Source of the DNA: Bilabrum cf. latius
Taxonomy: Eukaryota
Length of the DNA stretch: 64,000 bases
Direction of reading: 5' to 3'
NCBI GenBank assembly: GCA_965178125.1
Contig: OZ237769.1
Location: forward strand, 1 to 64,000
Part shown: one piece after another, positions 1 through 54,338 of the stretch
Layout of the letters: each line of letters opens with the position of its first letter
Numbering within the stretch: position 1 is the stretch's first letter
Program-made: the position numbers and the translations under genes
The notes under the pieces: model-generated
The model's database searches: none
What the model was told of the DNA's origin: nothing
What the model saw: only the letters and a program-made list of their open reading frames with translations

Positions 1-22
1 AAACGGATTCGTATTGATTCAT
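1..22 (-). CDS. rpsF: N-terminus of bacterial 30S ribosomal protein S6 (runs off the window edge)
   Basis: Minus strand ATG AAT CAA TAC GAA TCC GTT T reads MNQYESV(F), matching the typical Bacteroidota S6 start MNQYETVF. Only 7 full codons are visible. Confidence 0.6.
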
Positions 23-73
23 CTGTTAAACAATTAAGAATTAAAGCTTTAAACCTTTCTTTAAAAAGGACGG

Positions 74-81
74 CAAAAGTA
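74..81 (-). promoter_or_regulatory. Bacteroidota-type -7 promoter element (TAnnTTTG) upstream of rpsF
   Basis: Minus strand TACTTTTG lies about 50 nt upstream of the ATG at 22 and matches the Bacteroidota housekeeping consensus TAnnTTTG. Confidence 0.5.
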
Positions 82-292
82 GGGAAAAAGATGGGAAATG
101 AAGCATGGAGGTTGAAGAAGTTGGGAATTAGTAATTAGTAGCTAGTAACTAGTAGAAAGTAGAAAGACCTTGCCCTGTAGATTTTAGAACCAAGTATTAT
201 TGGTGAGGTGAAATTCTCAAATGCTTCTTAAATGAATCAAGACTTGGAACTAAATCCCATCTTTTTACTCTGTACTAGATACTAAGTACTAT

Positions 293-1666
293 TTATCTAT
301 ACACCCTCACTGTCCCCTGCTCAAACTTCTCAATGCGTCTCCCTCCAATCTCAGCATAATAAGTGATTTTATAAACGAACACTCCCGGTGGAGCATCCAC
401 GCCTTTGGAAGTTCCGTCCCAATAATCACCTATGTTATCATTGCTGAAAACAAGGATGCCCCAGCGATTAAAGATTTCAATTTGATAATTAAAACCGGCG
501 CAAGCACTTTTAATTTCAAATTCATCATTAAAGCCATCGCCATTTGGACTAAATGCATCGGGCATGACCAAATTGCAATCACAGAATTGATAGGATAAGC
601 TAAAATCTGTAGTCCGAACCCCACAAGGATGCACGTATTCGATGCCGTAGAGACCAGCCTCGCGGAAATGGAACAAGCCATTTTGGATAGGACTGCCATT
701 AATTCGCACTTCAGTAAATGGCTCCTGATTGAAGTCATAATAAAAGCTCTGTCTAAAACAAAGGCTTGTATCCGCAGGCAAAGGAACCTTTAGAGAATCA
801 AGATCCAGAAAATCTACGACAATAGTATCCTGGATCGTATCATTGTTTCCCATAATCCTCAGCCAATAGGCTCCACTTTGATAAACCGTTCTACTATGGG
901 AGGTACTGCCATTATCCCATAGGTAGTTTATGGTATTCGTATCGGGCATTATTATTTCCAGCGAATCGCCTAAACATAATGAAGTATCCTGTGGTAATCT
1001 GGGCAAGGGATCTGGAACCTGACCTTGAAAAATGGAATCAATTTGGTTGGAATTTAAGGCGCAGTCAAAAATCTTTAAGTCGTCAATCCTACCCTTAAAA
1101 AAGCGAATAGTCCTGGAGCGATGAGCGCCAATAACCAAGTGTACATAGGCGCTGAAAGAACTACCATTGGAATTGGAAAGTGCACCTGCCCTTAACTGTC
1201 CATTAAAATAGTAAAAGCAACTATCTGGTGTGCGCACCAGTGCAACATGGAACCATTTTGCCGTATCAATTGGCGCTGCATAGGTTAAACTACCTGTACC
1301 TCCTGCCCTACCCACCAAGCTTCCATTATCGATTTCTGAACTAAATGCACCGTAATTAAGGGTGTTGGCATCATGCGAAATAATGGAGCTCCTAGTGTTG
1401 ATTTGCTCTGCGTACGCCCAAAAAGTTACAGTGCGGCTGGGGAAATCATAAGTCGTATAGGTGTCAATATAATCGTCTACCCCGTCAAAATAAACGGCTC
1501 CGTTTGGATTGTTAAAGCGGTCTGGAGCAGGACTTAGGTTTCCGCCAAAAAAGGTTCCATGATTTTGGTAAACACTTGAATCTTGGGCATCACCATTTAA
1601 GGGGAAGTGAGCCCGTAAATCACATTGCGCCGAAATTGATTGGGCACCTAATGCACAGAGAAGAAA
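293..1666 (-). CDS. Bacterial T9SS substrate: LamG-like jellyroll domain plus gliding-motility-associated (type B) C-terminal domain; 5' end cut off by the telomere tract
   Basis: Remnant signal peptide LFLLCALGAQSISAQ; LamG motifs (HFPLNGDAQD, DRFNNPNGAVYFDGVDDYI, WFHVALVR, FKGRIDDLKIFD); CTD motifs PDAFSPNGDGFND...IFNRWG...WDG...GVFVY; TAA stop; AT-rich compared with the rest of the window; no start codon before the repeats. Confidence 0.85.
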   Translation of the reverse strand, partial: FLLCALGAQSISAQCDLRAHFPLNGDAQDSSVYQNHGTFFGGNLSPAPDRFNNPNGAVYFDGVDDYIDTYTTYDFPSRTVTFWAYAEQINTRSSIISHDANTLNYGAFSSEIDNGSLVGRAGGTGSLTYAAPIDTAKWFHVALVRTPDSCFYYFNGQLRAGALSNSNGSSFSAYVHLVIGAHRSRTIRFFKGRIDDLKIFDCALNSNQIDSIFQGQVPDPLPRLPQDTSLCLGDSLEIIMPDTNTINYLWDNGSTSHSRTVYQSGAYWLRIMGNNDTIQDTIVVDFLDLDSLKVPLPADTSLCFRQSFYYDFNQEPFTEVRINGSPIQNGLFHFREAGLYGIEYVHPCGVRTTDFSLSYQFCDCNLVMPDAFSPNGDGFNDEFEIKSACAGFNYQIEIFNRWGILVFSNDNIGDYWDGTSKGVDAPPGVFVYKITYYAEIGGRRIEKFEQGTVRVYR

Positions 1667-2458
1667 TAACCCTAACCCTAACCCTAACCCTAACCCTAAC
1701 CCTAACCCTAACCTAACCCTAACCCTAACCCTAACCCTAACCCTAACCCTAACCCTAACCCTAACCCTAACCCTAACCCTAACCCTAACCCTAACCCTAA
1801 CCCTAACCCTAACCCTAACCCTAACCCTAACCCTAACCCTAACCCTAACCCTAACCCTAACCCTAACCCTAACCCTAACCCTAACCCTAACCCTAACCCT
1901 AACCCTAACCCTAACCCTAACCCTAACCCTAACCCTAACCCTAACCCTAACCCTAACCCTAACCCTAACCCTAACCCTAACCCTAACCCTAACCCTAACC
2001 CTAACCCTAACCCTAACCCTAACCCTAACCCTAACCCTAACCCTAACCCTAACCCTAACCCTAACCCTAACCCTAACCCTAACCCTAACCCTAACCCTAA
2101 CCCTAACCCTAACCCTAACCCTAACCCTAACCCTAACCCTAACCCTAACCCTAACCCTAACCCTAACCCTAACCCTAACCCTAACCCTAACCCTAACCCT
2201 AACCCTAACCCTAACCCTAACCCTAACCCTAACCCTAACCCTAACCCTAACCCTAACCCTAACCCTAACCCTAACCCTAACCCTAACCCTAACCCTAACC
2301 CTAACCCTAACCCTAACCCTAACCCTAACCCTAACCCTAACCCTAACCCTAACCCTAACCCTAACCCTAACCCTAACCCTAACCCTAACCCTAACCCTAA
2401 CCCTAACCCTAACCCTAACCCTAACCCTAACCCTAACCCTAACCCTAACCCTAACCCT
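1667..2458 (+). repeat. Telomeric repeat tract 1, (CCCTAA)n, about 132 units
   Basis: Direct reading; one 5-nt variant near 1710. The C-strand on + is the orientation of a left chromosome end. Confidence 0.99.
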
Positions 2459-5280
2459 GGCAGCTGTCGGTGCGGAACCCTCCTCCGATGACGAGTGAAA
2501 AGCAGCCAGGCGGATGGCAATTGAGGTCAGTGGCAGCTGGGCCAGCTTGTGAGAGGAGCTTGCCAAAGTGCCAGCCAGTGACCCGTTAGGACGGAATAGT
2601 AGGAGCCAAGAGGCATTCTGTTTAGTCTTGGCTGTCAGCCGATGAATACCTTAAGTCAAAGCAATCCATCAATCGAATACAACGGTCATGTACACAATAC
2701 CCATTCTACAATTGACGAATCCACAATGCATTCTACAGAGACAAGCAATTCTTCATCCGGCCATATCGGCGCCGCGCGACAAAAACGGATCCTAATAAAA
2801 TTTTGCCCCATGTTGTGCCCCAGGACCGACCCAATGCAGTTTGAATCATCTTCATATCTACTCTGGTTGCCGAGATCTCAATTCCGTATTTTGGTCCACG
2901 AAACTCTTCATCCGGCCATATCGGCGCCGCGCGACAAAAACGGATCCTAATAAAATTTTGCCCCATGTTGTGCCCCAGGACCGACCCAATGCAGTTTGAA
3001 TCATCTTCATATCTACTCTGGTTGCCGAGATCTCAATTCCGTATTTTGGTCCACGAAACTCTTCATCCGGCCATATCGGCGCCGCGCGACAAAAACGGAT
3101 CCTAATAAAATTTTGCCCCATGTTGTGCCCCAGGACCGACCCAATGCAGTTTGAATCATCTTCATATCTACTCTGGTTGCCGAGATCTCAATTCCGTATT
3201 TTGGTCCACGAAACTCTTCATCCGGCCATATCGGCGCCGCGCGACAAAAACGGATCCTAATAAAATTTTGCCCCATGTTGTGCCCCAGGACCGACCCAAT
3301 GCAGTTTGAATCATCTTCATATCTACTCTGGTTGCCGAGATCTCAATTCCGTATTTTGGTCCACGAAACTCTTCATCCGGCCATATCGGCGCCGCGCGAC
3401 AAAAACGGATCCTAATAAAATTTTGCCCCATGTTGTGCCCCAGGACCGACCCAATGCAGTTTGAATCATCTTCATATCTACTCTGGTTGCCGAGATCTCA
3501 ATTCCGTATTTTGGTCCACGAAACTCTTCATCCGGCCATATCGGCGCCGCGCGACAAAAACGGATCCTAATAAAATTTTGCCCCATGTTGTGCCCCAGGA
3601 CCGACCCAATGCAGTTTGAATCATCTTCATATCTACTCTGGTTGCCGAGATCTCAATTCCGTATTTTGGTCCACGAAACTCTTCATCCGGCCATATCGGC
3701 GCCGCGCGACAAAAACGGATCCTAATAAAATTTTGCCCCATGTTGTGCCCCAGGACCGACCCAATGCAGTTTGAATCATCTTCATATCTACTCTGGTTGC
3801 CGAGATCTCAATTCCGTATTTTGGTCCACGAAACTCTTCATCCGGCCATATCGGCGCCGCGCGACAAAAACGGATCCTAATAAAATTTTGCCCCATGTTG
3901 TGCCCCAGGACCGACCCAATGCAGTTTGAATCATCTTCATATCTACTCTGGTTGCCGAGATCTCAATTCCGTATTTTGGTCCACGAAACTCTTCATCCGG
4001 CCATATCGGCGCCGCGCGACAAAAACGGATCCTAATAAAATTTTGCCCCATGTTGTGCCCCAGGACCGACCCAATGCAGTTTGAATCATCTTCATATCTA
4101 CTCTGGTTGCCGAGATCTCAATTCCGTATTTTGGTCCACGAAACTCTTCATCCGGCCATATCGGCGCCGCGCGACAAAAACGGATCCTAATAAAATTTTG
4201 CCCCATGTTGTGCCCCAGGACCGACCCAATGCAGTTTGAATCATCTTCATATCTACTCTGGTTGCCGAGATCTCAATTCCGTATTTTGGTCCACGAAACT
4301 CTTCATCCGGCCATATCGGCGCCGCGCGACAAAAACGGATCCTAATAAAATTTTGCCCCATGTTGTGCCCCAGGACCGACCCAATGCAGTTTGAATCATC
4401 TTCATATCTACTCTGGTTGCCGAGATCTCAATTCCGTATTTTGGTCCACGAAACTCTTCATCCGGCCATATCGGCGCCGCGCGACAAAAACGGATCCTAA
4501 TAAAATTTTGCCCCATGTTGTGCCCCAGGACCGACCCAATGCAGTTTGAATCATCTTCATATCTACTCTGGTTGCCGAGATCTCAATTCCGTATTTTGGT
4601 CCACGAAACTCTTCATCCGGCCATATCGGCGCCGCGCGACAAAAACGGATCCTAATAAAATTTTGCCCCATGTTGTGCCCCAGGACCGACCCAATGCAGT
4701 TTGAATCATCTTCATATCTACTCTGGTTGCCGAGATCTCAATTCCGTATTTTGGTCCACGAAACTCTTCATCCGGCCATATCGGCGCCGCGCGACAAAAA
4801 CGGATCCTAATAAAATTTTGCCCCATGTTGTGCCCCAGGACCGACCCAATGCAGTTTGAATCATCTTCATATCTACTCTGGTTGCCGAGATCTCAATTCC
4901 GTATTTTGGTCCACGAAACTCTTCATCCGGCCATATCGGCGCCGCGCGACAAAAACGGATCCTAATAAAATTTTGCCCCATGTTGTGCCCCAGGACCGAC
5001 CCAATGCAGTTTGAATCATCTTCATATCTACTCTGGTTGCCGAGATCTCAATTCCGTATTTTGGTCCACGAAACTCTTCATCCGGCCATATCGGCGCCGC
5101 GCGACAAAAACGGATCCTAATAAAATTTTGCCCCATGTTGTGCCCCAGGACCGACCCAATGCAGTTTGAATCATCTTCATATCTACTCTGGTTGCCGAGA
5201 TCTCAATTCCGTATTTTGATGCAAAAAATGAAGATGAAAATATTTTTTCCTCGACCCTGTCCCTGACTTTATATTAGATA
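2456..5280 (+). mobile_element. Telomere-embedded element family A, copy 1 (more 5'-truncated)
   Basis: Appears identical to 6006-8830 (offset 3550). Contains the last codons of the acidic ORF, a unique 3' region, a 155-bp array and a fixed 3' end ...GACTTTATATTAGATA abutting CCCTAA repeats. Confidence 0.7.
2751..5218. repeat. 155-bp tandem array, about 16 copies, no mismatches seen
   Basis: Unit CTTCATCCGGCCATATCGGCGCCGCGCGAC...GGTCCACGAAACT recurs every 155 nt; the last copy is truncated at GTATTTTG. Confidence 0.98.
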
Positions 5281-5497
5281 CCCTAACCCTAACCCTAACC
5301 CTAACCCTAACCCTAACCCTAACCCTAACCCTAACCCTAACCCTAACCCTAACCCTAACCCTAACCCTAACCCTAACCCTAACCCTAACCCTAACCCTAA
5401 CCCTAACCCTAACCCTAACCCTAACCCTAACCCTAACCCTAACCCTAACCCTAACCCTAACCCTAACCCTAACCCTAACCCTAACCCTAACCCTAAC
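5281..5497 (+). repeat. Telomeric repeat tract 2 (internal), about 36 units
   Basis: Direct reading of (CCCTAA)n. Confidence 0.99.
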
Positions 5498-6048
5498 TTA
5501 GTGGAGGAGCTGGCCGCGCCATTGACCAGGAGAAGAGGGGAGCAAGTGGCGCAAGGAGTGGAGCAGCAGCATCACTGCCTCGACAGGACTCTGAGGAAGA
5601 TGAAGAGGAGATCGGTGGTCGGTACCACGCAGACGCAGCCGGAGAGGAGGACGAGGATGAAGCTCCGATAGGGCTCGTGCAGCAGGACGAGGAGGATGGG
5701 GACGAGCTGGATGAGGAAGAAGAGAACGAGGCCCAGAACCAGCAAGACGACTCTGAGAACGACGGTGGAGTGGAGGACAACGGCTTCACCGACTAGCAGC
5801 GGCACCTGGTGGACCGCATTCTCACTGCCTGCGATGACACCGCGCTGGGCGTCAGCCGGACTGTCGACGACATGGTCGAGGACGTGCAGGAAACAATTGC
5901 AGAGAGGGACCACGGATTGGGCATGCTCGCAGACCTGATGACGGCCCTCGAGAAGACGGCGGAAGGAGATCTCAATGCGGCAGACGTGGACGCTGTGGAG
6001 GCGCTCCTGGCAGCTGTCGGTGCGGAACCCTCCTCCGATGACGAGTGA
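5497..6048 (+). CDS. C-terminal fragment of an acidic (D/E-rich) protein carried by element A; no start codon
   Basis: The frame is open from the telomere junction: LSGGAGRAIDQEKR...EEDEEE...DNGFTD*(TAG)QRHLVDRILTACDD...AEPSSDDE-TGA. One in-frame TAG, read as Gln. Confidence 0.7.
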
Positions 6049-8830
6049 AAAGCAGCCAGGCGGATGGCAATTGAGGTCAGTGGCAGCTGGGCCAGCTTGT
6101 GAGAGGAGCTTGCCAAAGTGCCAGCCAGTGACCCGTTAGGACGGAATAGTAGGAGCCAAGAGGCATTCTGTTTAGTCTTGGCTGTCAGCCGATGAATACC
6201 TTAAGTCAAAGCAATCCATCAATCGAATACAACGGTCATGTACACAATACCCATTCTACAATTGACGAATCCACAATGCATTCTACAGAGACAAGCAATT
6301 CTTCATCCGGCCATATCGGCGCCGCGCGACAAAAACGGATCCTAATAAAATTTTGCCCCATGTTGTGCCCCAGGACCGACCCAATGCAGTTTGAATCATC
6401 TTCATATCTACTCTGGTTGCCGAGATCTCAATTCCGTATTTTGGTCCACGAAACTCTTCATCCGGCCATATCGGCGCCGCGCGACAAAAACGGATCCTAA
6501 TAAAATTTTGCCCCATGTTGTGCCCCAGGACCGACCCAATGCAGTTTGAATCATCTTCATATCTACTCTGGTTGCCGAGATCTCAATTCCGTATTTTGGT
6601 CCACGAAACTCTTCATCCGGCCATATCGGCGCCGCGCGACAAAAACGGATCCTAATAAAATTTTGCCCCATGTTGTGCCCCAGGACCGACCCAATGCAGT
6701 TTGAATCATCTTCATATCTACTCTGGTTGCCGAGATCTCAATTCCGTATTTTGGTCCACGAAACTCTTCATCCGGCCATATCGGCGCCGCGCGACAAAAA
6801 CGGATCCTAATAAAATTTTGCCCCATGTTGTGCCCCAGGACCGACCCAATGCAGTTTGAATCATCTTCATATCTACTCTGGTTGCCGAGATCTCAATTCC
6901 GTATTTTGGTCCACGAAACTCTTCATCCGGCCATATCGGCGCCGCGCGACAAAAACGGATCCTAATAAAATTTTGCCCCATGTTGTGCCCCAGGACCGAC
7001 CCAATGCAGTTTGAATCATCTTCATATCTACTCTGGTTGCCGAGATCTCAATTCCGTATTTTGGTCCACGAAACTCTTCATCCGGCCATATCGGCGCCGC
7101 GCGACAAAAACGGATCCTAATAAAATTTTGCCCCATGTTGTGCCCCAGGACCGACCCAATGCAGTTTGAATCATCTTCATATCTACTCTGGTTGCCGAGA
7201 TCTCAATTCCGTATTTTGGTCCACGAAACTCTTCATCCGGCCATATCGGCGCCGCGCGACAAAAACGGATCCTAATAAAATTTTGCCCCATGTTGTGCCC
7301 CAGGACCGACCCAATGCAGTTTGAATCATCTTCATATCTACTCTGGTTGCCGAGATCTCAATTCCGTATTTTGGTCCACGAAACTCTTCATCCGGCCATA
7401 TCGGCGCCGCGCGACAAAAACGGATCCTAATAAAATTTTGCCCCATGTTGTGCCCCAGGACCGACCCAATGCAGTTTGAATCATCTTCATATCTACTCTG
7501 GTTGCCGAGATCTCAATTCCGTATTTTGGTCCACGAAACTCTTCATCCGGCCATATCGGCGCCGCGCGACAAAAACGGATCCTAATAAAATTTTGCCCCA
7601 TGTTGTGCCCCAGGACCGACCCAATGCAGTTTGAATCATCTTCATATCTACTCTGGTTGCCGAGATCTCAATTCCGTATTTTGGTCCACGAAACTCTTCA
7701 TCCGGCCATATCGGCGCCGCGCGACAAAAACGGATCCTAATAAAATTTTGCCCCATGTTGTGCCCCAGGACCGACCCAATGCAGTTTGAATCATCTTCAT
7801 ATCTACTCTGGTTGCCGAGATCTCAATTCCGTATTTTGGTCCACGAAACTCTTCATCCGGCCATATCGGCGCCGCGCGACAAAAACGGATCCTAATAAAA
7901 TTTTGCCCCATGTTGTGCCCCAGGACCGACCCAATGCAGTTTGAATCATCTTCATATCTACTCTGGTTGCCGAGATCTCAATTCCGTATTTTGGTCCACG
8001 AAACTCTTCATCCGGCCATATCGGCGCCGCGCGACAAAAACGGATCCTAATAAAATTTTGCCCCATGTTGTGCCCCAGGACCGACCCAATGCAGTTTGAA
8101 TCATCTTCATATCTACTCTGGTTGCCGAGATCTCAATTCCGTATTTTGGTCCACGAAACTCTTCATCCGGCCATATCGGCGCCGCGCGACAAAAACGGAT
8201 CCTAATAAAATTTTGCCCCATGTTGTGCCCCAGGACCGACCCAATGCAGTTTGAATCATCTTCATATCTACTCTGGTTGCCGAGATCTCAATTCCGTATT
8301 TTGGTCCACGAAACTCTTCATCCGGCCATATCGGCGCCGCGCGACAAAAACGGATCCTAATAAAATTTTGCCCCATGTTGTGCCCCAGGACCGACCCAAT
8401 GCAGTTTGAATCATCTTCATATCTACTCTGGTTGCCGAGATCTCAATTCCGTATTTTGGTCCACGAAACTCTTCATCCGGCCATATCGGCGCCGCGCGAC
8501 AAAAACGGATCCTAATAAAATTTTGCCCCATGTTGTGCCCCAGGACCGACCCAATGCAGTTTGAATCATCTTCATATCTACTCTGGTTGCCGAGATCTCA
8601 ATTCCGTATTTTGGTCCACGAAACTCTTCATCCGGCCATATCGGCGCCGCGCGACAAAAACGGATCCTAATAAAATTTTGCCCCATGTTGTGCCCCAGGA
8701 CCGACCCAATGCAGTTTGAATCATCTTCATATCTACTCTGGTTGCCGAGATCTCAATTCCGTATTTTGATGCAAAAAATGAAGATGAAAATATTTTTTCC
8801 TCGACCCTGTCCCTGACTTTATATTAGATA
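5498..8830 (+). mobile_element. Telomere-embedded element family A, copy 2 (longer, still 5'-truncated)
   Basis: Flanked on both sides by CCCTAA tracts; starts mid-ORF with no ATG; same 3' end as copy 1. Confidence 0.7.
6301..8768. repeat. 155-bp tandem array, about 16 copies (second array)
   Basis: Same unit and same copy number as 2751-5218. Confidence 0.98.
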
Positions 8831-9350
8831 CCCTAACCCTAACCCTAACCCTAACCCTAACCCTAACCCTAACCCTAACCCTAACCCTAACCCTAACCCT
8901 AACCCTAACCCTAACCCTAACCCTAACCCTAACCCTAACCCTAACCCTAACCCTAACCCTAACCCTAACCCTAACCCTAACCCTAACCCTAACCCTAACC
9001 CTAACCCTAACCCTAACCCTAACCCTAACCCTAACCCTAACCCTAACCCTAACCCTAACCCTAACCCTAACCCTAACCCTAACCCTAACCCTAACCCTAA
9101 CCCTAACCCTAACCCTAACCCTAACCCTAACCCTAACCCTAACCCTAACCCTAACCCTAACCCTAACCCTAACCCTAACCCTAACCCTAACCCTAACCCT
9201 AACCCTAACCCTAACCCTAACCCTAACCCTAACCCTAACCCTAACCCTAACCCTAACCCTAACCCTAACCCTAACCCTAACCCTAACCCTAACCCTAACC
9301 CTAACCCTAACCCTAACCCTAACCCTAACCCTAACCTAACCCTAACCCTA
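8831..9350 (+). repeat. Telomeric repeat tract 3 (internal), about 86 units
   Basis: Direct reading; one 5-nt variant near the right junction. Confidence 0.99.
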
Positions 9351-10154
9351 GTTTCTCCTAACACGAACGCCGGATCAACGCATAGTACCGAGCCTTCCGA
9401 TGCAGTACAAATTTGCTGTAGTACGGAATACAAATGGCTACGCTAGTGCGCAGATACATGCGTACCAACCTATACAATGAACCGCAAGCTTTCTTGAGCT
9501 ATGCAGCTTGCAGCGATGCAAATGCCCCGTCGAACGGCAAGACAGTCCAAGACGAAGTCACCGGGAACCACTCCAAGCAACTTCCACGGCGATGTGTGTT
9601 CCTACTTGGGACCTAAACCATGCTTCTACATCATTCAATCCCTCGAACTTTTCGAATCCTGGCAGCAGTCGGTCGTGTTCCGTAATCAACTGTTGCCAGT
9701 GGCGCCGCGCACACACCCTGAGCCAAAATATCCGTTCAGTGCAACACCCATTGCAACAAGTCTAGGATGGCCAGTGAACATTTTTGCACCATCGATAATG
9801 CGTGCAGTATCGTTAATGAAAAGGACTAGCTCGCATCTATGCGCAAGGTGCTTACACGGTTGGAGCAAGCCCTAACTCGACGGTCCATTCATTGGCAGCA
9901 AGTACCAGTGAGACCAGCTGTTGCACATGCTACAATGGTCCCGTCATGGCTCGCTAACTGATATTAAGTATATACCCGTATAATAACTTTCGCAGATCGC
10001 AGAGGAGAAATTGAGCTTAATCCGCGAGTTCAACCACGACTAGCCAAATCCACCCCGTGAAGTGAGACGTTTTTCATCGGTTTGCATCAACCAGTTACAA
10101 ATTTCAGTTTTCGGCACAAGTGCTACGCTTATAATTTCATGCGCCATCTCACAG

Positions 10155-10577
10155 ATGGATGGTGTCGAGACCCAAGAGATCGAGGACTGTCTCCGCTTGC
10201 TGCAAGTAAAAGCTGCTGACTTCGACAACTTGCTGGCTTCTCTACTCGTGGTGTACGATACACCGAGCGCCAATGCAGAGATCTCCCACAAGACGACCAT
10301 TCAATGGCTGCTGGAATCATCAGACCTACATTCCGATGTATCTTTGGTTGATTGCTGCCAATATGCTCCTCATGATCACCTCCCCGCGCAAGCAGCGCTG
10401 GCAAGCAGGACAGTGGCTCCCTCAGTGCATATTGATGGAGTGAGGTAGCCGTTGGCGGGTCCAACGGAGCACCTGCAGTCGCCAGGCAGTAGCAGCAGTA
10501 ACAGCAGTAACAGCAGTAGCAGCAGTAGCAGCAGTAGCAGCAGTAGCAGCAGTAGCAGCAGTAGCAGCAGTAGCAGT

Positions 10578-10616
<39 letters not shown>

Positions 10617-13600
10617 CGCAGTCTGTCAGGAGGTGCAAGCCAAGCCTCTGGGAGCTCACCAGCCCGTCCTCGCTCATCGAGAAGCGGTGGTCCCAGCAGC
10701 AGCCACAGTCTGTCAGGAGGTGCAAGCCAAGCCTCTGGGAGCTCACCAGCCCGTCCTCGCTCATCGAAGAGCGGTGGTCCCAGCAGCAGCCACAGTCTGT
10801 CAGGAGGTGCAAGCCAAGCCTCTGGGAGCTCACCAGCCCGTCCTCGCTCATCGAGAAGCGGTGGTCGCAGCAGCAGCCGCAGTCTGTCAGGAGGTGCAAG
10901 CCAAGCCTCTGGGAGCTCACCAGCCCGTCCTCGCTCATCGAGAAGCGGTGGTCCCAGCAGCAGCCATAGTCTGTCAGGAGGTGCAAGCCAAGCTTCTGGA
11001 GGTGCATCAGGCCGCATTCTGTCCCGACCAGCACCAGCGTCTGGCCAATAGAGGATGGTGGAGCTGTCACCATCGCAGAGATTCTTAGCAGATATGTGCC
11101 TTGGATTTGCACCATTGCCTCCTGTCCGTAGACAAGGAGCTCGTGCTGCGGCAAGAAAGAAGGCCATTGTTGCGGAGAGTCGATCATCTGGCTAGCCAAT
11201 CCCACCAAGTGCCAGCCGAGGCCTTCCAAGCTCGGCGTCAAGAAGGAGATCGACAAGCAGCACACTTTCGGACCGACCGTAGAGCTTTGCAGCGTTCTAG
11301 GTTCCCCCACTCTCTGACGACATGCCGCTGTCTTGTCACTGTGATTCTGCCTTTGATTTAGATGGATACACTGCACTTGGAGCGGTAGCGTGTTGTACTG
11401 GCACAGGTGAAGATGAGACTTCGAACTACTTCCTGCCTCAAACGTTGGCAAGGCCGCTGGGGCTGGACGGATCGGACCATACACTGCTGGACTGGATCAC
11501 AGATGGCGTTCTAGGCGTCCATGACTCAGATTCGCTGCTTCCGTCGTATACCAGCTTGTCTCAATCGCCTGCTTCTGGCGTGGTAGTTCGAGCGGCACAT
11601 GCCCAGCGCCCACCTGCAGGAGGCTCGATGCGACTAGCATGGTCGTCACACATTGATGGCGGTGATAGCGTCTTCAAGGATGAGCAGACTGCCATGCGAT
11701 GGTCTTCGTTAGAGAAACACGGGGATACCTTGGAGGTTGCGAGCGTGGTGGCCAAGGTGCATGCTCTGCGCCAGCAAAGTCCGCACGGTATTGGTGGCAC
11801 GAACATTCGGGTCCTGGCAGCTGGGGCTTAGGCAGACGTGTCTAGATATAGCAAACACATTGAGTAGCAGTGCAAACGTGAGTACCAGTGGACTCTCGAC
11901 AAAGCTGACAGGGGAGGCTGGTCCTCAGTGCTCCCGCACGCTGGAACCTTGTGGAGTCGGGCCGTGCATCAAGCGTCATCGAGCGGCCAGAGCGATCAAT
12001 AGGCTAATCTACCAAAGCTTCATGTCCTGAGCGGTCTTGCAACTGATATTCACGTTCAGCTTTTCGACGTTGGTGCAGCTACAGTGTCTGTCATGGTGCC
12101 GGGTGGTTTGCTTGCCTTCTGTCGAGACCTGATCGACGCCTTTGAACCTCCTATTAGGTCACTGCAACACACGCTTGATTCTGAAGGGGTTGTGGAACTA
12201 GCAAACGACGAGGGATTCTGGACCCAAGGATCACACATCGATGTCATTCGGAGTTGTTTGCTGTACGTGTTTGGCTCGGGCCTACGAGCTGCTGCCAAGA
12301 AGCTCGATTGGTAGGGACCCGAGCTAGTGATTCGTGTATAGCGCGGAGGTGGGCAAACTGGTGGATTCAAGTCATCTCTCACGCATGTTGCCAGTGGGCG
12401 AGGCCCGTAGACAAGCAGATTCTGGCCCAGTTCTCACACTCGGGACCGTAGTCCATCACGATTTCTGTCAAGTGCATTTCATTGGGTGCGATGCTTGGGG
12501 TATCCTGCTGTTGGTCAGACTGATGTGTCTGACTCCGACTCCGAGTCTGACTCCAGGTCTGACTCCGACTCTGGTGTGAGTGAGGCCACAGAAGCAAGGC
12601 AAGCAGAATCCGTTGCAGTGCTTGGCCGGGACAACTGGCTCTAGGATCAGGACGGCTTGCTGCGGCGCATGGTGCACGTTTCTCACTACAACCGATTCCT
12701 CATGATATTGCTCATGAGGCAGGTGGCAAGATGCTCAGTGTTTTATGTATAGCGAGTCGGCTGCAAGGCTTGCAAGCCGATGTCTCTCTTGCTGCAGGCT
12801 GCACAGCAACAGATGCGCAGAGCAGAGGCAGACATTGCTGCTCAGCAGTCAGCACGGGAGCGCGCTCGACAAGCTGCGATGGATGAAAGCGATGAAGAGG
12901 ACGCCAGAGGACGGAGAGGTGAGTGGTTTGGTCCGACAGGAGATCGCAGTGACGGGACATCAAGGACTCCCACAGGTCCAAGCTCTACAACAGCTGCCAG
13001 CAGCAAGCCAAAGACGCGTGTTGCCAGTCGATAGATGCAGACTGGCGTGGCGCAGGCGCGTGCATGGAGTGGATCTTAGTAGCGTCGAGGTATGCGAGAT
13101 CTTGCGGCCATCATTCATCCGCATGGTCTGCTGACTCCCCAGCAAGACGCAGACATGGCCACGTACTGCAGTTTTGGCGTTGGCTTTGAATTGTGTGGCC
13201 AGCCCTCGCACACAGTAGCAATTCCCAACCCAGCTATGATAAAGTTCATGCACAGCAGTCGTGATGAGCTTTTGCAAGAGGTTGTGCATGGTACGCCGCT
13301 CGAACGGGCTCGGTACGCCGTGGTGCGAGAGGCTACTCGTCCCTACGGGGCACTGGCGTCGGTTGGCGAGTACGCTGGGACATTGCAAGGGAAGCTGCCG
13401 TCTTCTATCTCTTGGGGTGACATCGCTGCAATACACCAGCGTGTACTTGCCAAGGATACCGCGCATGCAACCAGTGACGACGGGGGTATATCGTCCTTCC
13501 TGCCATTTGGCTGCCTGCTGTCGTCGTAGTTGCACGTGTATCAGCCCGGAGCGTTCCGATCCCAATAGCCAAGTCCAGGGACGCACGATTCCGCGCATGA

Positions 13601-16403
13601 TCTATTTCGGCGGCGTGTTCTCTCCAGGCTGCGCCACTCTGCTGAGACAGACGCACAAAGAGCAGTTGCACCCGTTGCGCGAGGTAGAGATGTCGCAGCT
13701 GCTAGTGGAGCACTCGAGACACTGCCAATTCGCAGGCATATACAGTGTGGGCTTCAAACAGCATACGAACAAAGCATGCAAAGGCTGTCGAAAGGCCTGA
13801 AAGGGTCAACGCGAGGCGAATTCGACGTGCCCGCATCAACCATGGCCTTGATGCTGGGCTGCGTGATGCTACCAGCTGAAGCAATCTACTAGCAGCAGCG
13901 CCCTGAGCACCGCGCCTAGACTACTGAAGAGTATTCTGAAGCTCCTTTCGCACGCCATTTCATAGAAGTCGTGCATGACGATGTCATGGAGGACTACATA
14001 CAGTTGGTTTACACTACTTTCAATCGAGCCCTCCAAAGGATCCAGAGGTTGCTTGTGGCATCTGTCTGCGGTTCTGACAGGATTCCGACATTCCAACGTT
14101 CTGCAATGTGGGCGCTAGCGGCATCAATGTCCCGGTGTTGCTTAGAAGGATGGGTGGCTTTACGAACGGATGCATGGTCGCAGGTTGTTGCAGAACAAAC
14201 TGCTGTGACATGGCTACCTGCAACAAGGCCTGTCCTGCGCAACCTTGGACCTGCTACAATTGAGTGGCAGGTCGTCCGCGACTGTCTGCAGTCATCTGGG
14301 TGCATGCCAGAGCAATCTGCTGTTGTTGCAGTCGCAGCAGCAATCGTCGATCAAGTTGCCAGTGCCGTGCATTCCGTTCGCGCTGGGGACGGCCACGGCT
14401 CGCGCCTGAACTCGTGGACGGTTTTAGCCGTATGTGAAATCATAGTTACGTCTTGGAGCCTTTGCGCCGTAGCAGAGTGCAACGGAATGACATGGCAAGT
14501 GGCCAGGAGGTCCACGCAATATGCCCTCTGTGGGCTTGTGTCGGCGCACGATAGCGAGCAGTTTAGGATGGGGATTAGTGGTGTCAATAGCGGGGTCGCA
14601 GGATTTCGCGCAATGGTACGAGCTGACGTTGTGGCGGCCATTCTAGACAAACTTCCTGTTCGGTGCTAGCTAGTCTATGACATGCGGGCGCTGACCGGTA
14701 TCAACGTTGCTATCACGATTGAGATGGAGCTCAGGAAGCTGTATCTGGCACAGTTGCATTTGCCAAAGCTCCACCTACGCAACGGCACACGGAAGGGAAT
14801 GCTAGCAAGGGGTAGTCTGGCTGTAGCACTGTACGGGCAGCTTGTGTCTCGATTGAAGTGCTCGAGGAGCTCGATCTTGGTGGGTCTGAGGTCGTGCATA
14901 TCGAAGACAGCAGTCTGCCCGTACCCCACCGCGGCTGCCATGTGGCGCGGGTCGACGAATGCAGGCAATTTCAGGGCAGATTACGCTACCAAGTCCTCTG
15001 CTCGAGCGTCTGGCCTTCCTGTTGCCGTTCTGACGACAGAGTCCCCAACCATGCAGCGCACGCTTCCTGCGGAATCCTCAGTAAAGACGTCGTATGTCGC
15101 GGCTCTGCTGCGAGCCGTTGTGAGCACCAGGCCGCAAGGACAGCCATCAGTAGCAGACGAGCAGTTCCGCAGCATGCTGTCCCAATGGCTGCTTCCAGCT
15201 TGCGTAATTGGATCTGCAACATTGCTACCAGACCGTATACAGCGAACTTAGCTGCCTGGAATCAAGCGACCGAGAGGTGATCAAGCACCAGACGCGGAGG
15301 ATGGACCGACCGTGGTGGTTGGGCCACCTCCAGCATCCGCATAGCCTGCCGTCATTGTTGCCCAGCGCGTCGAAGAGTTCATGGTGGAGCATGGCAAGTG
15401 GCAGATTCCAAGGTTTGGTGACAAGCAGACGTTTCAGGGAACCTTGAACCGACCAGATGGGTCTCTCAGGCGGGTGATCGATGTATGCTACCATGGCGCA
15501 GGCCTGTGCGTGGACCTGCAAGCAGCTCCATTCACCGTGCCTGCACTTTCGGATGCTCCGTACAACAAGTTGGCGGGCAAGGGAGACCTACGAATCTGCA
15601 TGCAGGACGACTTAAAGATTGTGCATGCTGCTCGCACGGAAGTCGCTCGCATCATTGGCGGTCAGGAACGTCTAAAGAGGATCCACAGATATAGGATATG
15701 GCAGGCAACCAGGGAAAGTTATCCCGCGCTGCCCAACGATACGCCCGATTTGTTCCGGCGTGCTTGCTCTGGTGAAGACATCGGGGCTACCAGCGCATCA
15801 ACGCAGTAGCCTTCAGCATCATTGAGTCCTGTCATGGAGAACCATGCAAGCCAGCAATGGCCCTCCGAACACAGTGATGAAGAGCATGATGAAATGCCGC
15901 GTTCCAAGAAGCGCTTCCGGCGGCCAGACATCCCAATAGCTTCACTGACCGGAACGTCGGGAGCTGTCAGTGACGGTGGTTTCAAGCCTCCGGCAATTGG
16001 CAACTACCAGTCTGGGCGGCCAGCATCCAGTGGAGCTGGGAGTGGTGGTGACGCGTTTACATTGCAGTCGTCACTAGGCATAGACGCAAGGAAACGTGCA
16101 GCATTGGCTGGTCTGGCACCGCCCTAGGGTTCCTCGAGCGGCACCGCAGCAGCACCCAGGGGGATCCAGCGGCTTGCAGCATCTAGCGAGGCAGAAGGAG
16201 CAGACGAGGAGGACGAGCAACGCTTGGCGATATCGCCCGTGTCAAGTTCGAGCCTACGTAGTCATGGCTCAGAAGCGTTGGAGCATGCCTACTCAGGTGC
16301 TCGTGGTGAAGTGGAGACGCTGGTTCCAGGCCATCCGCCGCAATGGATCTCCATTCCAGCCCTCGACGACGTATACTGGGACCATGACACGTATTGGGAT
16401 TGA
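10155..16403 (+). CDS. Orphan protein of about 2,080 aa (TAG read as Gln) with an N-terminal poly-Ser tract and 29-aa repeats; may have additional upstream exons
   Basis: Track ORFs 10062, 10452, 11322, 12084, 12780, 13092, 13971, 14682, 15381 and 15822 are all in one frame. The bridging segments contain only TAG stops (25 counted) and no TAA or TGA until TGA at 16401-16403. Confidence 0.8.
10487..10995 (+). repeat. (AGC/AGT)n microsatellite followed by about 4.3 copies of an 87-bp coding repeat
   Basis: CAGTCTGTCAGGAGGTGCAAGCC... recurs at 10619, 10706 and onward, encoding SLSGGASQASGSSPARPRSSRSGGPSSSH. Confidence 0.95.
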
Positions 16404-18597
16404 CAAATTGAACAAGAGTTTAGCTATGAGCAAGTACTATTCGACCTATGCTGAACAGTTTTCTAGAAATGGTCTGGAAACCAATATATGGGGCTGCCTC
16501 CAACACGTCGTCCTACATGTTGTACCAAGCCACATACTCCGTTCCGTAGATTGGTTGTTGTACAAGTACTAAGACTTTATGTATCGAGTTGGGATGCGGT
16601 CCACAAAGCGTACTGATCCCAATCGTGCACGGACACATCCGGTGACCTGACTTGCTGTGGTGACTGCCTGCCAGTGGGCTGATTCCGACGTCCGGGTTAT
16701 CAATTCCGTCCTAGGATGCCGCCGAAATGTTTCATTGAAACCTACTTAGTATCGTAGCCTGAGGTGCCGGTCAGTTGGTCAGCAAAGGAAGTCGCTTGTG
16801 CTGGCTGGCACTGAGGAGCAGTGGGGGCTTCAGCATGTCAACTGGAGGACAGCGATGCCTGCTGCGTAGCGTGTGGAATTAGACTAGATTGAATTGATGT
16901 ATGAATATGATGCGCCAGCGTTATCAAATCGCGAAGCTGTGCACGGTTCTCGTATACTTCTGGCAGCTGGAGCACCTGCTAACGTGAGCAAATCTCAAAT
17001 ATTCCCCCAAGTAATGCATAAATCGAACTGATAGCTATGATCAAGTGCAACGAAATAATAACTTGCTTGAAACAATGACGAGATTGACCGTATACACTGC
17101 TGAGTCTGGCTGCATCGTGAAGCTCAGACGCCGCGCCGCGGCATGCTGGTTCCGCTGTTCGCGACCGTTTGTGGATTCTGGCGCAACCACACCTCTCCGC
17201 GCCACAGACCGGCTCAACTGTCCTGGGGGCTGTTGGGATTCATGTTAATTACCATTTACTGCCATACATCGTTGTGTGTTCAAGGTGGAATGCTGCTGTG
17301 GCTCTGCTTTGGTCTCGTCTCCTTGGGGCGCGCGATGGCGTTTGCAGACAGAACAGCTAGGTACCGCATAGCCCGAGTACAACAACCGCCAGGTATTTTG
17401 ATTCTATTGTATTCATTCAGTTTGTTTGCTTTGTATTTGTGTTAGGTTCTGGCATCTGAATGGGAAGGTCGCTGGTCTGCTGACGTGCTTGTGCGTTGTC
17501 CAGTTTTCATGACAGCACTCAGGTATGCTGCCATGCATCGAGGGGCTATAAATTTGTTTTCAATCGTTTCATTCTTTTCCTATGCATTGCAGGCAGCCTT
17601 TAGGACCCACCTGTGCTGATGAGACCCTCTCGCCGCTTCTGGCAAACATTGCATGGAACTGAGCAGATCCGTGCGGTGGGCGAGCAGAGAGTCAGACCGG
17701 CCAACCGTATAGGGATCCGTACGGATGGCGGTTGATTCTTTGGTCTCTTCAGGGCAGTCCCAATGATGCGTCCCGTCCCCAGCTCCTGGACTCGGCCTTC
17801 GGCGGCACGCCCGTCATCCTCTCACGCGGCTGCCCGCGCACCCTCCCAGCACTTAGTCCTTGAGTCGGGCGGGAGCGCGGGTGCGTGCTTCGAGGCAGCG
17901 CGTGCCCCCGGGGCGAGAAGGAGCAGGCCAATGACGAGGAGCAGCATCCCGGGACAGGTGTCTCTGTAGATCCGATCGTCGAGTGTGGAGGTGTGTGTGG
18001 CAACACGATGAACCTGATGTCCCAGATCCGCAATGAGGTGGGGCAGGCAGTGCATGGGGAGCGCAAGCTCCTCGTGCACGCGCTTCATGCCGGCTCGCTG
18101 CCATCGGCCGCTGACTTGATCCCCGGGCTCGCGCACTTGTCGCGGCCCGTGCTGTCTCAGTCACGGACGGGCGAGCTGGATGGAGCACCTGCCCGACGGG
18201 GAGACAACCCCCTATTCTCGCGGGCGAAACACAGCAGGGCACACCTCCTTGGCAAACCCAATTTGCACGACGCGGTTTGGTCCAGACTCGCCGGGTGGGC
18301 GTCCATCCCGTGCAGCCCCCTGGGTGCTCGTCACCCACGGGCCGCACTGCCGAGGAGACCGCGGCCGAGATTCATTGCAAACCAAGCAGACACACATAAT
18401 CAAACACCAAATATGCATTGCCAATCACTTGCACCTCTTGCCGACTGCTTGCATCCTTGCAACTGGCCCAGATCCGCCTCAGTGCGATCTTGCGACCACT
18501 TCGACACTGCGCGGCACCGCCGTCTTTGCGGAACATGTCAACTTCTGCGGAACATGTCAACTTTCGCGGCGCCTTACCCTTCCCTGAGATGGTACTG

Positions 18598-19110
18598 TAA
18601 CCCTAACCCTAACCCTAACCCTAACCCTAACCCTAACCCTAACCCTAACCCTAACCCTAACCCTAACCCTAACCCTAACCCTAACCCTAACCCTAACCCT
18701 AACCCTAACCCTAACCCTAACCCTAACCCTAACCCTAACCCTAACCCTAACCCTAACCCTAACCCTAACCCTAACCCTAACCCTAACCCTAACCCTAACC
18801 CTAACCCTAACCCTAACCCTAACCCTAACCCTAACCCTAACCCTAACCCTAACCCTAACCCTAACCCTAACCCTAACCCTAACCCTAACCCTAACCCTAA
18901 CCCTAACCCTAACCCTAACCCTAACCCTAACCCTAACCCTAACCCTAACCCTAACCCTAACCCTAACCCTAACCCTAACCCTAACCCTAACCCTAACCCT
19001 AACCCTAACCCTAACCCTAACCCTAACCCTAACCCTAACCCTAACCCTAACCCTAACCCTAACCCTAACCCTAACCCTAACCCTAACCCTAACCCTAACC
19101 CTAACCCTAA
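18598..19110 (+). repeat. Telomeric repeat tract 4 (innermost), about 85 units, followed by degenerate units to about 19132
   Basis: Direct reading; decays into ACCCTATAATCTAAAACCTAAA, as is typical of the proximal edge of a native telomere. Confidence 0.98.
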
Positions 19111-19132
19111 ACCCTATAATCTAAAACCTAAA

Positions 19133-20393
19133 GACATGGACTGCCGGATCTCGGGGCAGGATCGAGTGCTTGGGTGCTTGGGTGCTGGGTGGACTGGTGG
19201 AGCGCGCGGGACATGGACTGCCAGATCTCGCGGCAGGATCGAGTGCTTGGGTGCTTGGGTGCTGGGTGGACTGGTGGAGCGCGCGGGACATGGACTGCCA
19301 GATCTCGCGGCAGGATCGAGTGCTTGGGTGCTTGGGTGCTGGGTGGTCTGGTGGAGCGCGCGGGACATGGACTGCCAGATCTCGGGGCAGGATCGAGTGC
19401 TTGGGTGCTTGGGTGCTGGGTGGACTGGTGGAGCGCGCGGGACATGGACTGCCGGAGCTCGCGGCAGGATCGAGTGCTGGGGTGCTTGGGTGCCGGGTGG
19501 ACTGGTGGGGCGCGCGGGACATGGACTGCCAGATCTCGGGGCAGGATCGAGTGCTTGGGTGCTTGGGTGCCGGGTGGACTGGTGGAGCGCGCGGGACATG
19601 GACTGCCAGATCTCGCGGCAGGATCGAGTGCTTGGGTGCTTGGGTGCTGGGTGGTCTGGTGGAGCGCGCGGGACATGGACTGCCAGATCTCGCGGCAGGA
19701 TCGAGTGCTTGGGTGCTTGGGTGCTGGGTGGACTGGTGGAGCGCGCGGGACATGGACTGCCAGATCTCGGGGCAGGATCGAGTGCTTGGGTGCTGGGTGG
19801 ACTGGTGGAGCGCGCGGGACATGGACTGCCAGATCTCGGGGCAGGATCGAGTGCTGGGATGCTTGGGTGCTGGGTGGACTGGTGGAGCGCGCGGGACATG
19901 GACTGCCGGATCTCGCGGCAGGATCGAGTGCTTGGGTGCTTGGGTGCTGGGTGGACTGGTGGAGCGCGCGGGACATGGACTGCCAGATCTCGCGGCAGGA
20001 TCGAGTGCTTGGGTGCTTGGGTGCTGGGTGGACTGGTGGAGCGCGCGGGACATGGACTGCCAGATCTCGCGGCAGGATCGAGTGCTTGGGATGCTTGGGT
20101 GCTGGGTGGACTGGTGGAGCGCGCGGGACATGGACTGCCGGATCTCGCGGCAGGATCGAGTGCTGGGGTGCTTGGGTGCTGGGTGGTCTGGTGGAGCGCG
20201 CGGGACATGGACTGCCAGATCTCGCGGCAGGATCGAGTGCTTGGATGCTTGGGTGCTGGGTGGACTGGTGGAGCGCGCGGGACATGGACTGCCAGATCTC
20301 GCGGCAGGATCGAGTGCTTGGGTGCTTGGGTGCTGGGTGGACTGGTGGAGCGCGCGGGACATGGACTGCCAGATCTCGCGGCAGGATCGAGTG
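19133..20393. repeat. 77-bp subtelomeric satellite, about 16 slightly diverged copies
   Basis: Unit GACATGGACTGCCAGATCTCGCGGCAGGATCGAGTGCTTGGGTGCTTGGGTGCTGGGTGGACTGGTGGAGCGCGCGG, with point variants and one 8-nt-shorter copy. Confidence 0.97.
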
Positions 20394-28290: not shown

Positions 28291-28520
28291 CGGCTCGCCA
28301 GGCTGACATCAACCGCACTGCAGCGTATGGCAGGCGCACCCAAGCGCCATCGAGACCAAGCAAGCCCAACTCTGTGGCAGCCGACGCGAAGCAGCCCACC
28401 CCGGCTCGCCTGGCTGACTTTGACAGCAAGGCGGCCACTGGCAGGCGCGCACATGCGCCATCAAGCCCCAGCAAGAGCAAGTATACCCATAATGCACGCT
28501 GATCCCTCCAGCCTCATAGT

Positions 28521-54200: not shown

Positions 54201-54338
54201 AGTTGCCTCTAGGGCTAGCATCCGTTCGCCGAGACGTGATACATCGAGGTGGACCCCGGCAAGCTCCGCCCTGGAACAGGTAGCGCAATGGAATACTGTA
54301 AACACTGCCAATAGTGCAATGCGGGCTTGAATCCGCAT
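51234..54338 (-). CDS. Secreted protein of about 1,034 aa with a C-terminal phage tail collar domain
   Basis: Signal peptide MRIQARIALLAVFTVFHCATCS; collar motif VPSGTIV...PIGWLPCDGRVLSKAGYPTLWSVIGDTY...FKIPDLRGRFPAG; family-typical end PPSLLLHFIIKT-TGA, reached only by reading through the TAGs (53964, 53619, 53457, 51441, 51339). Confidence 0.85.

Follow-up and report, generated by a model that had tools for sequence, protein, structure and literature searches.

Organisation of the chromosome end

The DNA analysed here is a window of 64,000 nucleotides (contig OZ237769.1, positions 1 to 64,000) from a GC-rich eukaryote, for which the nearest named protein matches are in the stramenopiles. 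At its left end, telomere tracts (T1 to T4) alternate with non-telomeric units in the order T1, copy 1, T2, copy 2, T3, unit U, T4 and subtelomere, with a stretch of foreign DNA in front:

1..1669, minus strand: fragment of a Bacteroidota-type secreted-protein gene (Pfam CHU_C 2.3e-18, Laminin_G_3 2.3e-16)
1670..2457, plus strand: telomere tract T1, CCCTAA, ~131 units (TRF 132.2 copies, 99% matches)
2458..5280, plus strand: element copy 1, 5'-truncated at the equivalent of 6008 (2823/2823 bases equal to 6008-8830)
5281..5496, plus strand: telomere tract T2, 36 perfect CCCTAA units (TRF and script count)
5501..8830, plus strand: element copy 2, 5'-truncated within its ORF (direct reading, script comparison and contigs of longer copies)
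8831..9350, plus strand: telomere tract T3, ~87 units (84 units, then one 5-nt unit)
9351..18599, plus strand: unit U, 9.25 kb between telomere tracts, unrelated to the element in sequence and equal to it in polarity
18600..19110, plus strand: telomere tract T4, 85 perfect units counted from 18601
19111..20394, plus strand: degenerate telomere-like repeats in 19111-19132, followed by 16.5 copies of a 77-bp satellite

By script count, T1 is made up of 7 and 123 perfect CCCTAA units with one 5-nt unit between them. Copy 1, copy 2 and unit U share one orientation, with their ORFs on the strand that has its 3' end facing the centromere, and each unit has its 5' end directed towards the chromosome tip and is capped on that side by telomere repeats. 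As the tracts between the units are perfect repeats, the array is young, and the region 19111..20394 is likely to be the original boundary between telomere and subtelomere. The first-pass annotation covered 2456-8830, and two additions to it are needed: beyond 8830 the array goes on with unit U (9351-18599), the third to be flanked by telomere repeats, and with tract T4, and the window does not begin at the chromosome tip, bases 1-1669 being a bacterial gene fused to the telomere. The ORF of this gene is broken off inside its signal peptide at the join to the telomere, and its GC content is 42.5% versus ~60% across the remaining window; the join is chimeric, and the fragment does not belong to the element. 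Since foreign DNA joined to a telomere is what would be expected from ligation to a natural DNA end, T1 is likely to be the true terminal telomere.

Two copies of a single element

Within the two element copies, the following features were annotated:

2750..5218, plus strand: 155-bp tandem array of copy 1 (15.9 copies, 100% matches)
5497..5500, plus strand: four bases CTTA separating T2 from copy 2 (longer copies diverge at 5501-5504)
5500..6048, plus strand: C-terminal 182 codons of the element ORF (one in-frame TAG, stop TGA)
6300..8768, plus strand: 155-bp tandem array of copy 2 (15.9 copies, 100% matches)
8769..8830, plus strand: 62-bp 3' tail of the element, ending ...TTAGATA (repeated at 5219-5280)
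8804..8816, plus strand: telomere-like motif ACCCTGTCCCTGA, 14 nt from the 3' junction (second occurrence at 5254-5266)

Script comparison of copy 1 with the 3' part of copy 2 gave identity at 2823/2823 bases, which is far above chance. Both copies terminate in ...GACTTTATATTAGATA (ending TTAGATA) with CCCTAA repeats immediately after, so that the 3' junction TTAGATA/CCCTAA is identical in both (n=2, in the window). In blastn and tblastn searches of all other parts of the window, the element gave chance-level matches alone. These results agree with the earlier description of two copies with an exact shared 3' end, which start at different points of one ORF, are each capped by CCCTAA and have their 5' end towards the tip; they also agree with its view that the 3' UTR is mostly the 155-bp array, which takes up 2469/2782 bases downstream of the ORF stop codon. 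The start points needed adjustment: that of copy 1, given as 6006, lies at 6005-6008-equivalent, and copy 2, given as starting at 5498, becomes homologous to the longer copies at 5501-5504. The CTTA at 5497-5500 is neither a canonical repeat nor common to the longer copies. Copy 1 retains just the last 13 codons of the ORF, and the trinucleotide CCT is common to its 5' end and the telomere repeat, which makes this junction ambiguous by 3 nt (6005-6008-equivalent); such an overlap is expected where telomerase extends an end.

The element ORF and its relatives in other sequencing runs

The product of the element ORF consists of an acidic disordered region followed by two helices, placed at residues 98-154 (long) and 160-174 (short) in a single-sequence AF2 model of the 182 amino acids (pLDDT 62.8), a model of too low quality and too little complexity to support a fold search. 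The ORF matched no Pfam family and had no relatives among 1.84 billion representative proteins, while a protein search of metagenome and genome contig collections gave 0 loci. Likewise, a 30-mer derived from the ORF had 0 exact matches in the metagenome or genome contig collections, and a 31-mer derived from the array had 0 exact matches in a viral contig collection.

Contigs from 4/4 public runs contain a multi-copy, variable family of this element; the evidence from the runs consists of contigs, and the longest piece listed on the compared stretch is 410 nt, although runs X1-X3 contain contigs longer than 200 kb. No RNA dataset is listed among those with the element, and three of the runs are RNA by guess alone. 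Variant letters occur at 32 listed positions of 5598-5933, with one contig differing at 11/162 positions. The 32 variants create no stop codons, and 12/32 are synonymous versus 23.5% expected (p 0.054). We conclude that the element family is multi-copy and old. Word depth summed over the 155-bp array is ~10-30x that of the unique part, a figure which is not a copy number. Seven contigs, representing 4/4 runs, extend upstream of 5501-5504 into non-telomeric sequence, and four distinct upstream consensus sequences remain open in the frame of the element ORF on hand reading. One further copy is telomere-capped at 6074 (one contig, run X1), bringing the telomere-joined 5' ends to three sites in the ORF region (~5501 and 6008 in the window, 6074 in run X1). 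The copy-1 junction at 6008 was absent among the loose ends listed (15 of 32).

An unrelated unit with a similar 3' end

Two features of unit U are of importance here:

9987..16403, plus strand: ORF P0001, 2138 codons with 26 TAG in frame and neither TAA nor TGA before the TGA stop
18576..18587, plus strand: motif ACCCTTCCCTGA, 12 nt from the 3' junction of unit U

An earlier suspicion about the genetic code is confirmed, in that the host reads TAG as sense. Mesodinium, which came into question for its reassigned codons and lost introns, was rejected as the host since telomere repeats are missing from its assemblies (10.64898/2026.07.09.736142), and the literature listings searched for a eukaryote combining a TAG sense codon with TTAGGG telomeres contained no obvious match. 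For P0001, Pfam gave no family at thresholds up to E ≤ 10, and a PDB search gave nothing below E 0.09; its residues 900-2138 had no relative of near length, and a piece of the protein has an 84%-identical relative on five contigs of other assemblies.

Alignment of the 3' ends of the element and unit U is limited to a short motif. In the window, ACCCT(G)TCCCTGA is confined to the three 3' ends (3 versus 0.06 expected, with 0/100 shuffles reaching 3), a motif that was spotted post hoc and of which the three matches represent two independent units.

Searches for copying machinery

The first-pass annotation had called for searches with RT, Penelope-like element (PLE) and endonuclease HMMs under the recoded TAG, and these were run on the ORFs of the window. 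Domain scans covered 73 proteins, 13 long ORFs with TAG read as Q, six segments at E ≤ 10 and 66/106 further ORFs; 12 of the remaining 40 were covered by the TAG=Q scan, and the 28 left out are alternative-frame ORFs overlapping known genes. None of the ORFs scanned within the window contained an RT, endonuclease or PLE domain, an absence which concerns two truncated element copies, with longer copies existing elsewhere. A helicase domain was found neither in the element ORF nor in P0001.

The window contained no hammerhead ribozyme by the Rfam gathering score, and more permissive scans of 5281-6700 (E ≤ 1) and 8300-19200 (E ≤ 5) likewise found none; the sub-threshold Rfam matches in the latter region are low-complexity sequence and not ribozymes. 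No RNA families or tRNAs were found in the window, poly(A) or A runs were absent at 5270-5280, 8820-8830 and 18590-18599, and the predicted RNA fold of the element 3' tail was no better than that of shuffled sequences (z -0.65). The earlier proposal of a telomere-targeted retroelement stands with regard to its architecture, and finds no backing for RT-made copies in the form of an RT, endonuclease, hammerhead or poly(A).

Origin of the array

Our leading interpretation, to which we assign a probability of roughly 0.4, is that the units are retroelements which were reverse-transcribed onto chromosome ends and then capped by telomerase, with the copying itself being what we infer from the architecture. 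The left chromosome end would have gained non-telomeric units at least three times in succession, with the 3' end of each attached to the TTAGGG/CCCTAA tract that was terminal at the time and new telomere added on its 5' side. Reverse transcription of the unit's RNA would be primed by the 3'-OH at the end of the telomeric G strand, which would place a fixed 3' end on the centromere side. Synthesis of the cDNA would frequently halt early, resulting in variable 5' ends within the ORF, and telomerase would extend each new end, resulting in perfect tracts of 217-520 bp between the units. The element copies in the window would be non-autonomous fragments, any RT would be encoded farther upstream in longer copies elsewhere or supplied in trans, and the telomere-like motif that the element and the unrelated unit U have in common close to their 3' ends may be a recognition or annealing signal. 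A more elaborate version, which is speculative and in our opinion unlikely, is a system resembling Terminons in a protist with recoded TAG: an RT encoded upstream or elsewhere would recognise ACCCT(G)TCCCTGA with its 12-14-nt tail and append varied RNAs, including the 9.25-kb unit U with its conserved 2138-aa orphan protein, without hammerhead, poly(A) or endonuclease, and telomerase would rebuild a full telomere each time, making two reverse transcriptions alternate.

The main alternative, a DNA-templated origin, is possible although somewhat doubtful, and would need no RT. A module of telomere tract plus unit, the latter consisting of a subtelomeric gene's 3' end and a satellite, would spread and duplicate through invasion of an interstitial tract by a telomeric 3' end, which would then prime break-induced replication. 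The tract invaded could belong to the sister chromatid, to another chromosome end or, as a t-loop, to the same molecule, and the 5' truncations would represent aborted synthesis or terminal breakage with subsequent healing by telomerase. The adjacent copies are identical at 2823/2823 bases and have equal arrays of 15.9 units, whereas other family members differ by up to 11/162 letters, and because of this a local DNA duplication explains the pair of identical copies at least as simply. The lack of an RT in the window ORFs scanned points the same way, the perfect internal tracts supply ample homology, and copying out of an interstitial tract begins at the 3' end of a unit, which would produce a fixed 3' junction. 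Yeast Y' elements, which are tandem with telomere repeats between them, are made by recombination. However, this leaves unexplained how a non-telomeric 3' end came to lie on the distal side of a telomere, and why the same telomere-like motif is found 12-14 nt from the junction in both units. Two unrelated units both being in sense orientation has a 25% probability by chance, and break-induced replication normally reaches the end of its template, whereas here three capped 5' ends fall within ~600 bp.

Insertion of a site-specific non-LTR retrotransposon inside a tract, with its own endonuclease nicking the repeat as in MoTeR/FoTeR or TRAS/SART elements, seems improbable. It would account for telomere repeats flanking each unit on both sides, and published descriptions of FoTeRs include a 3' end followed by canonical repeats without poly(A), truncated copies outnumbering full-length ones, and internal tandem repeats in such elements (PMC12857005). 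The ORFs scanned contain no RT and no REL or APE endonuclease, however, and the internal tracts of 510-520 bp approach the length of a whole telomere (T1 is at least 788 bp). In addition, the repeat register at the 5' junction of copy 1 does not match that of its 3' flank, which fits end addition and healing better than insertion into one tract.

An assembly artefact, with the tandem pair or the whole array mis-joined from reads of different chromosome ends or cells, is very improbable. The contig does hold one proven chimeric join, that of the bacterial gene to the telomere at 1669/1670, the element copies are perfectly identical, and support comes from contigs (longest listed piece 410 nt) and not from spanning reads; however, the unit, the truncation within the ORF and the telomere-capped 5' ends recur independently in contigs of other runs, tract length and junction differ at every boundary, and the foreign DNA looks ligated to a natural end, which would make T1 a real terminus. 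A broken terminal fragment captured through end joining would give a variable proximal and a fixed distal junction, the reverse of what is observed, and this origin was rejected.

Comparison with known telomere-associated elements

Telomere-attached retroelements, reported to date in rotifers, certain fungi, insects, Giardia and a small number of further lineages, are central to ideas on the relationship between telomerase and retrotransposons. If reverse transcription onto chromosome ends is correct, this locus would be an independent example in a GC-rich protist with its nearest named protein matches in the stramenopiles, unusual for its host (in which TAG is read as sense and the telomeres have a working telomerase-type repeat), for keeping whole telomeres between the units, and for one 3' signal common to two unrelated cargoes. 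Whereas the 3' ends of TRAS/SART, HeT-A/TART and GilM/GilT carry poly(A) or oligo(A), the 3' junctions described here are without an A run.

Yeast Y' elements encode a helicase and spread by recombination between telomere tracts. They resemble our array in being tandem units with interstitial telomere repeats between them and near-identical neighbours, but Y' elements are not known to have a succession of telomere-capped 5' truncations, and neither ORF here has a helicase domain. The identical neighbours do fit recombination, and if the units spread in that manner, the locus would reflect ordinary though tidy subtelomere dynamics.

Close parallels exist with the endonuclease-deficient Athena and Coprina PLEs and the giant Terminons found in bdelloid rotifers, which likewise form head-to-tail arrays at chromosome ends with the 3' end facing the centromere, with predominantly 5'-truncated, telomere-capped copies, other genes between the units, and telomere-like reverse-complement hexamers near the 3' end, as described in the sections of the literature cited (PMC6431247, PMC8557442). 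For Terminons and Athena, head-to-tail arrays are reported in which telomeric repeats truncate the 5' ends of the copies and captured host genes lie in between (PMC6431247), and the window likewise contains 5'-truncated, telomere-capped copies arranged head-to-tail with the 3' end proximal. Unlike in Terminons, the Rfam scans of the window found no hammerhead near the 3' end. A PLE-type RT domain was seen in neither the 182-aa ORF, P0001 nor the other ORFs scanned, where both element copies are truncated and longer ones exist elsewhere. The hexamers in our element (CCCTGT CCCTGA) are degenerate and located 14 nt upstream of the 3' end (12-14 nt when unit U is included) instead of at the end, where the perfect CCCTAA tract masks any stretch borne by the element itself. 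Further differences are the length of the inter-unit tracts (217-520 bp, versus short stretches in Terminons), a 3' UTR which is mostly 155-bp satellite, and the TAG-recoded protist host.

The MoTeR elements of Magnaporthe and FoTeR elements of Fusarium are similarly located inside TTAGGG-type telomeres, with many truncated copies and internal tandem repeats (PMC12857005), and the 3' ends of both copies in the window resemble theirs in running from TTAGATA directly into CCCTAA without poly(A). MoTeR/FoTeR elements encode an RT and a restriction-enzyme-like endonuclease, domains of which neither was seen in the window ORFs scanned (both element copies being truncated), and have only a few repeat units between copies, whereas the tracts separating the units described here are of full telomere length.

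Organisation of the chromosome end

From the orientation of its CCCTAA repeats, the sequence is predicted to be a left chromosome end, in which telomere tracts (T1-T4) alternate with two copies of an element carrying a 155-bp array and with a third unit (unit U):

1-1669: stretch of 42% GC
1670-2457: telomere tract T1, CCCTAA, ~131 units
2458-5280: element copy 1
5281-5496: telomere tract T2, 36 perfect units
5497-5500: four bases outside both T2 and copy 2
5501-8830: element copy 2
8831-9350: telomere tract T3, ~87 units
9351-18599: unit U, 9.25 kb, with a telomere tract on each side
18600-19110: telomere tract T4, 85 units, all perfect
19111-19132: degenerate telomere-like repeats
19133-20394: 77-bp satellite (16.5 copies, 95% matches), adjoining the innermost telomere tract

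Beyond 20394 there are genes, with a GC content of ~60%. Given its degenerate inner edge and the satellite, T4 looks like the original telomere/subtelomere boundary, and everything to its left like a later addition. At the left edge, a minus-strand ORF within 293-1675 matches the CHU_C type IX secretion domain (Pfam, 2.3e-18) and Laminin_G_3 (2.3e-16) and encodes a Bacteroidota-type secreted protein; the signal peptide of this gene is interrupted exactly at the start of T1. We read 1-1669 as contaminant DNA in a chimeric join to a natural chromosome end, in which case T1 would be a real terminus, and at least one false join is shown at the left end of the contig.

Element copies in the window and in other runs

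The first-pass annotation had described copies with the same 3' end and different starts in one ORF, and this holds with small corrections: copy 1 matches the 3'-terminal 2823 bases of copy 2 at every position (2823/2823), the 155-bp array (15.9 copies, 100% matches) lies inside this common stretch, and the 3' junction is alike in both (...TTAGATA/CCCTAA). Copy 2 begins within an ORF open from 5500 to a TGA at 6046-6048 (182 codons, one in-frame TAG), of which copy 1 retains 13 codons, and the CCT at the 5' junction of copy 1 is common to element and telomere repeat.

The element stretch 5498-6460 is at least partly present in at least 12 runs of 7 studies, with five of the 12 listed runs carrying at least half of its sampled words; the run with the largest share may represent the source sample. 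Comparison with contigs (contigs only) of four public runs, X1, X2, X3 and X6, listed variant letters at 32 sites in the interval 5598-5933; the most divergent contig noted differed from the element in 11/162 letters, which indicates that the family is multi-copy and not young. Longer copies exist: seven contigs (three from X1, one each from X2 and X3, and two from X6) match the element from 5501-5504 onward and carry as many as 255 letters of non-telomeric sequence upstream of this point, and copy 2 is therefore genuinely truncated. Read by hand, the upstream parts listed, which give four distinct consensus sequences, are stop-free in the ORF frame and mutually similar. A third capped 5' end is seen in one X1 contig, where telomere repeats are joined at position 6074. 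None of the 32 variants creates a stop, and 12 are synonymous (23.5% expected, p 0.054), a weak sign of constraint. The summed word depth of the array, a figure which is not a copy number, is ~10-30x that of the unique part, in agreement with ~16 array units per copy. One X1 contig has 26 C's joined to element position 5981; an artefact of sequencing or of assembly may account for this.

Genetic code and host

Once TAG is read through, long ORFs appear in the window, including:

9987-16400, + strand: P0001, the ORF of unit U (2138 codons, 26 TAG, no TAA or TGA)
21430-24894, + strand: ORF with FG-GAP repeats (4 TAG)
51237-54494, - strand: ORF with a phage tail collar domain (5 TAG)
58154-61072, - strand: Y-family polymerase ORF with IMS and IMS_C domains (11 TAG)

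These four ORFs contain in-frame TAG, and all long ORFs end with TGA (9/9) and have no TAA inside; TAG is therefore a sense codon and TGA a stop, which bears out the earlier suspicion of an alternative code; TAG was assumed to be Q in the protein searches. The best named relatives of a PDIA6-like ORF (56729-57955) are from oomycetes and other stramenopiles (46-50% identity), and a 98%-identical relative is present in a Logan assembly. In the portions of the literature available, no described GC-rich, TAG-sense organism with TTAGGG telomeres and stramenopile-like proteins was found. The PDIA6-like ORF is without the N-terminal signal and the start of the first thioredoxin domain, which implies at least one upstream intron and thus a genome that is intron-poor, not intron-free.

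Proteins encoded by the units

The 182-aa element ORF matches no Pfam family, and a search of 1.84 billion representative proteins found no relative. Its low-confidence model shows an acidic, disordered part and two helices. P0001 matches no Pfam family, not even at E<=10, and has no PDB relative; its residues 900-2138 have no relative of near length. A stop-free 249-aa piece has a gapless relative (84% identity, 91% positives) on five contigs from Logan and ENA assemblies, so that P0001 is a real, conserved orphan protein; this relative stops at the position of an in-frame TAG in the window, and the TAG also appears to be conserved. The GC3 of P0001 (0.54) is lower than that of the element ORF (0.68) and of four neighbouring genes (0.64-0.83). 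The N-terminal part of P0001 is Ser-rich, with 87-bp repeats.

The ORF scans of the 64-kb window revealed no reverse transcriptase (RT) and no endonuclease; one scan took 66 of 106 ORFs, another covered 12 of the remaining 40, and the 28 outside all scans are overlapping alternative-frame ORFs. Of the telomere-targeted retroelement family first proposed at 2456-8830, the fixed 3' end and the 5' truncations stand, while the scanned ORFs provide no RT.

3' ends and origin of the units

Poly(A) is absent at the 3' junctions of the element and unit U, and no hammerhead, other Rfam family or notable RNA fold was found at the 3' ends. The element does not belong to the telomeric non-LTR elements with a poly(A) tail. 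Apart from one short motif, the element is unrelated in sequence to unit U. This motif, ACCCT(G)TCCCTGA, is located 14 nt (element) or 12 nt (unit U) before the telomere-tract junction. Within the whole window this pattern is confined to the three 3' ends (3 matches versus 0.06 expected; 0/100 shuffles reach 3, with both element copies being one independent unit), and it can be read as two or three degenerate CCCTAA-like hexamers.

We tentatively favour reverse transcription of the units primed by the chromosome end (probability about 0.4), based on the fixed 3' end combined with several different 5' ends, the sense orientation shared by two unrelated units, their common 3' motif, and the match with the architecture published for Terminons/Athena (PMC6431247, PMC8557442) and MoTeR/FoTeR (PMC12857005). 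Each unit most likely had its 3' end attached distally to an existing telomere and then gained a new telomere at its 5' end. On the sequence itself, the 5' caps resemble free ends extended by telomerase: the junctions are out of register, copy 1 has a 3-nt overlap, and the repeats are perfect. The main rival, somewhat less probable, is copying from a DNA template between telomere tracts, with healing afterwards; it better accounts for the perfect identity of neighbouring copies and needs no RT, but leaves unexplained the first joining of two unrelated units to a distal telomere end, their sense orientation and the same near-junction motif. Both processes may be combined, with retro-addition founding units and recombination duplicating them. 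Priming inside the telomere tract by an element endonuclease draws on the same fixed 3' end, 5' end series, orientation, motif and published architecture, and is ranked below chromosome-end priming as improbable; an assembly artefact is less likely still.

The units resemble endonuclease-deficient Penelope-like elements/Terminons in architecture, but here RT is unseen and the hammerhead was not found, and hence membership is not claimed. If the retroelement reading holds, this would be a new family of a kind already known, unusual in its telomere-length tracts between units, a 3' UTR filled by satellite, a second cargo with the same 3' signal, and the use of TAG as a sense codon in its host.

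Other repeats in the window

Large repeats of ~3.7 kb are located at 42-50 kb (42000-50700), in a region without Pfam families and with GC up to 68%, exemplified by the nearly identical ORFs 45713-46273 and 49434-49994. Tandem repeats of 39 bp and 232/271 bp are present at 28.3-30.3 kb (28270-30300).
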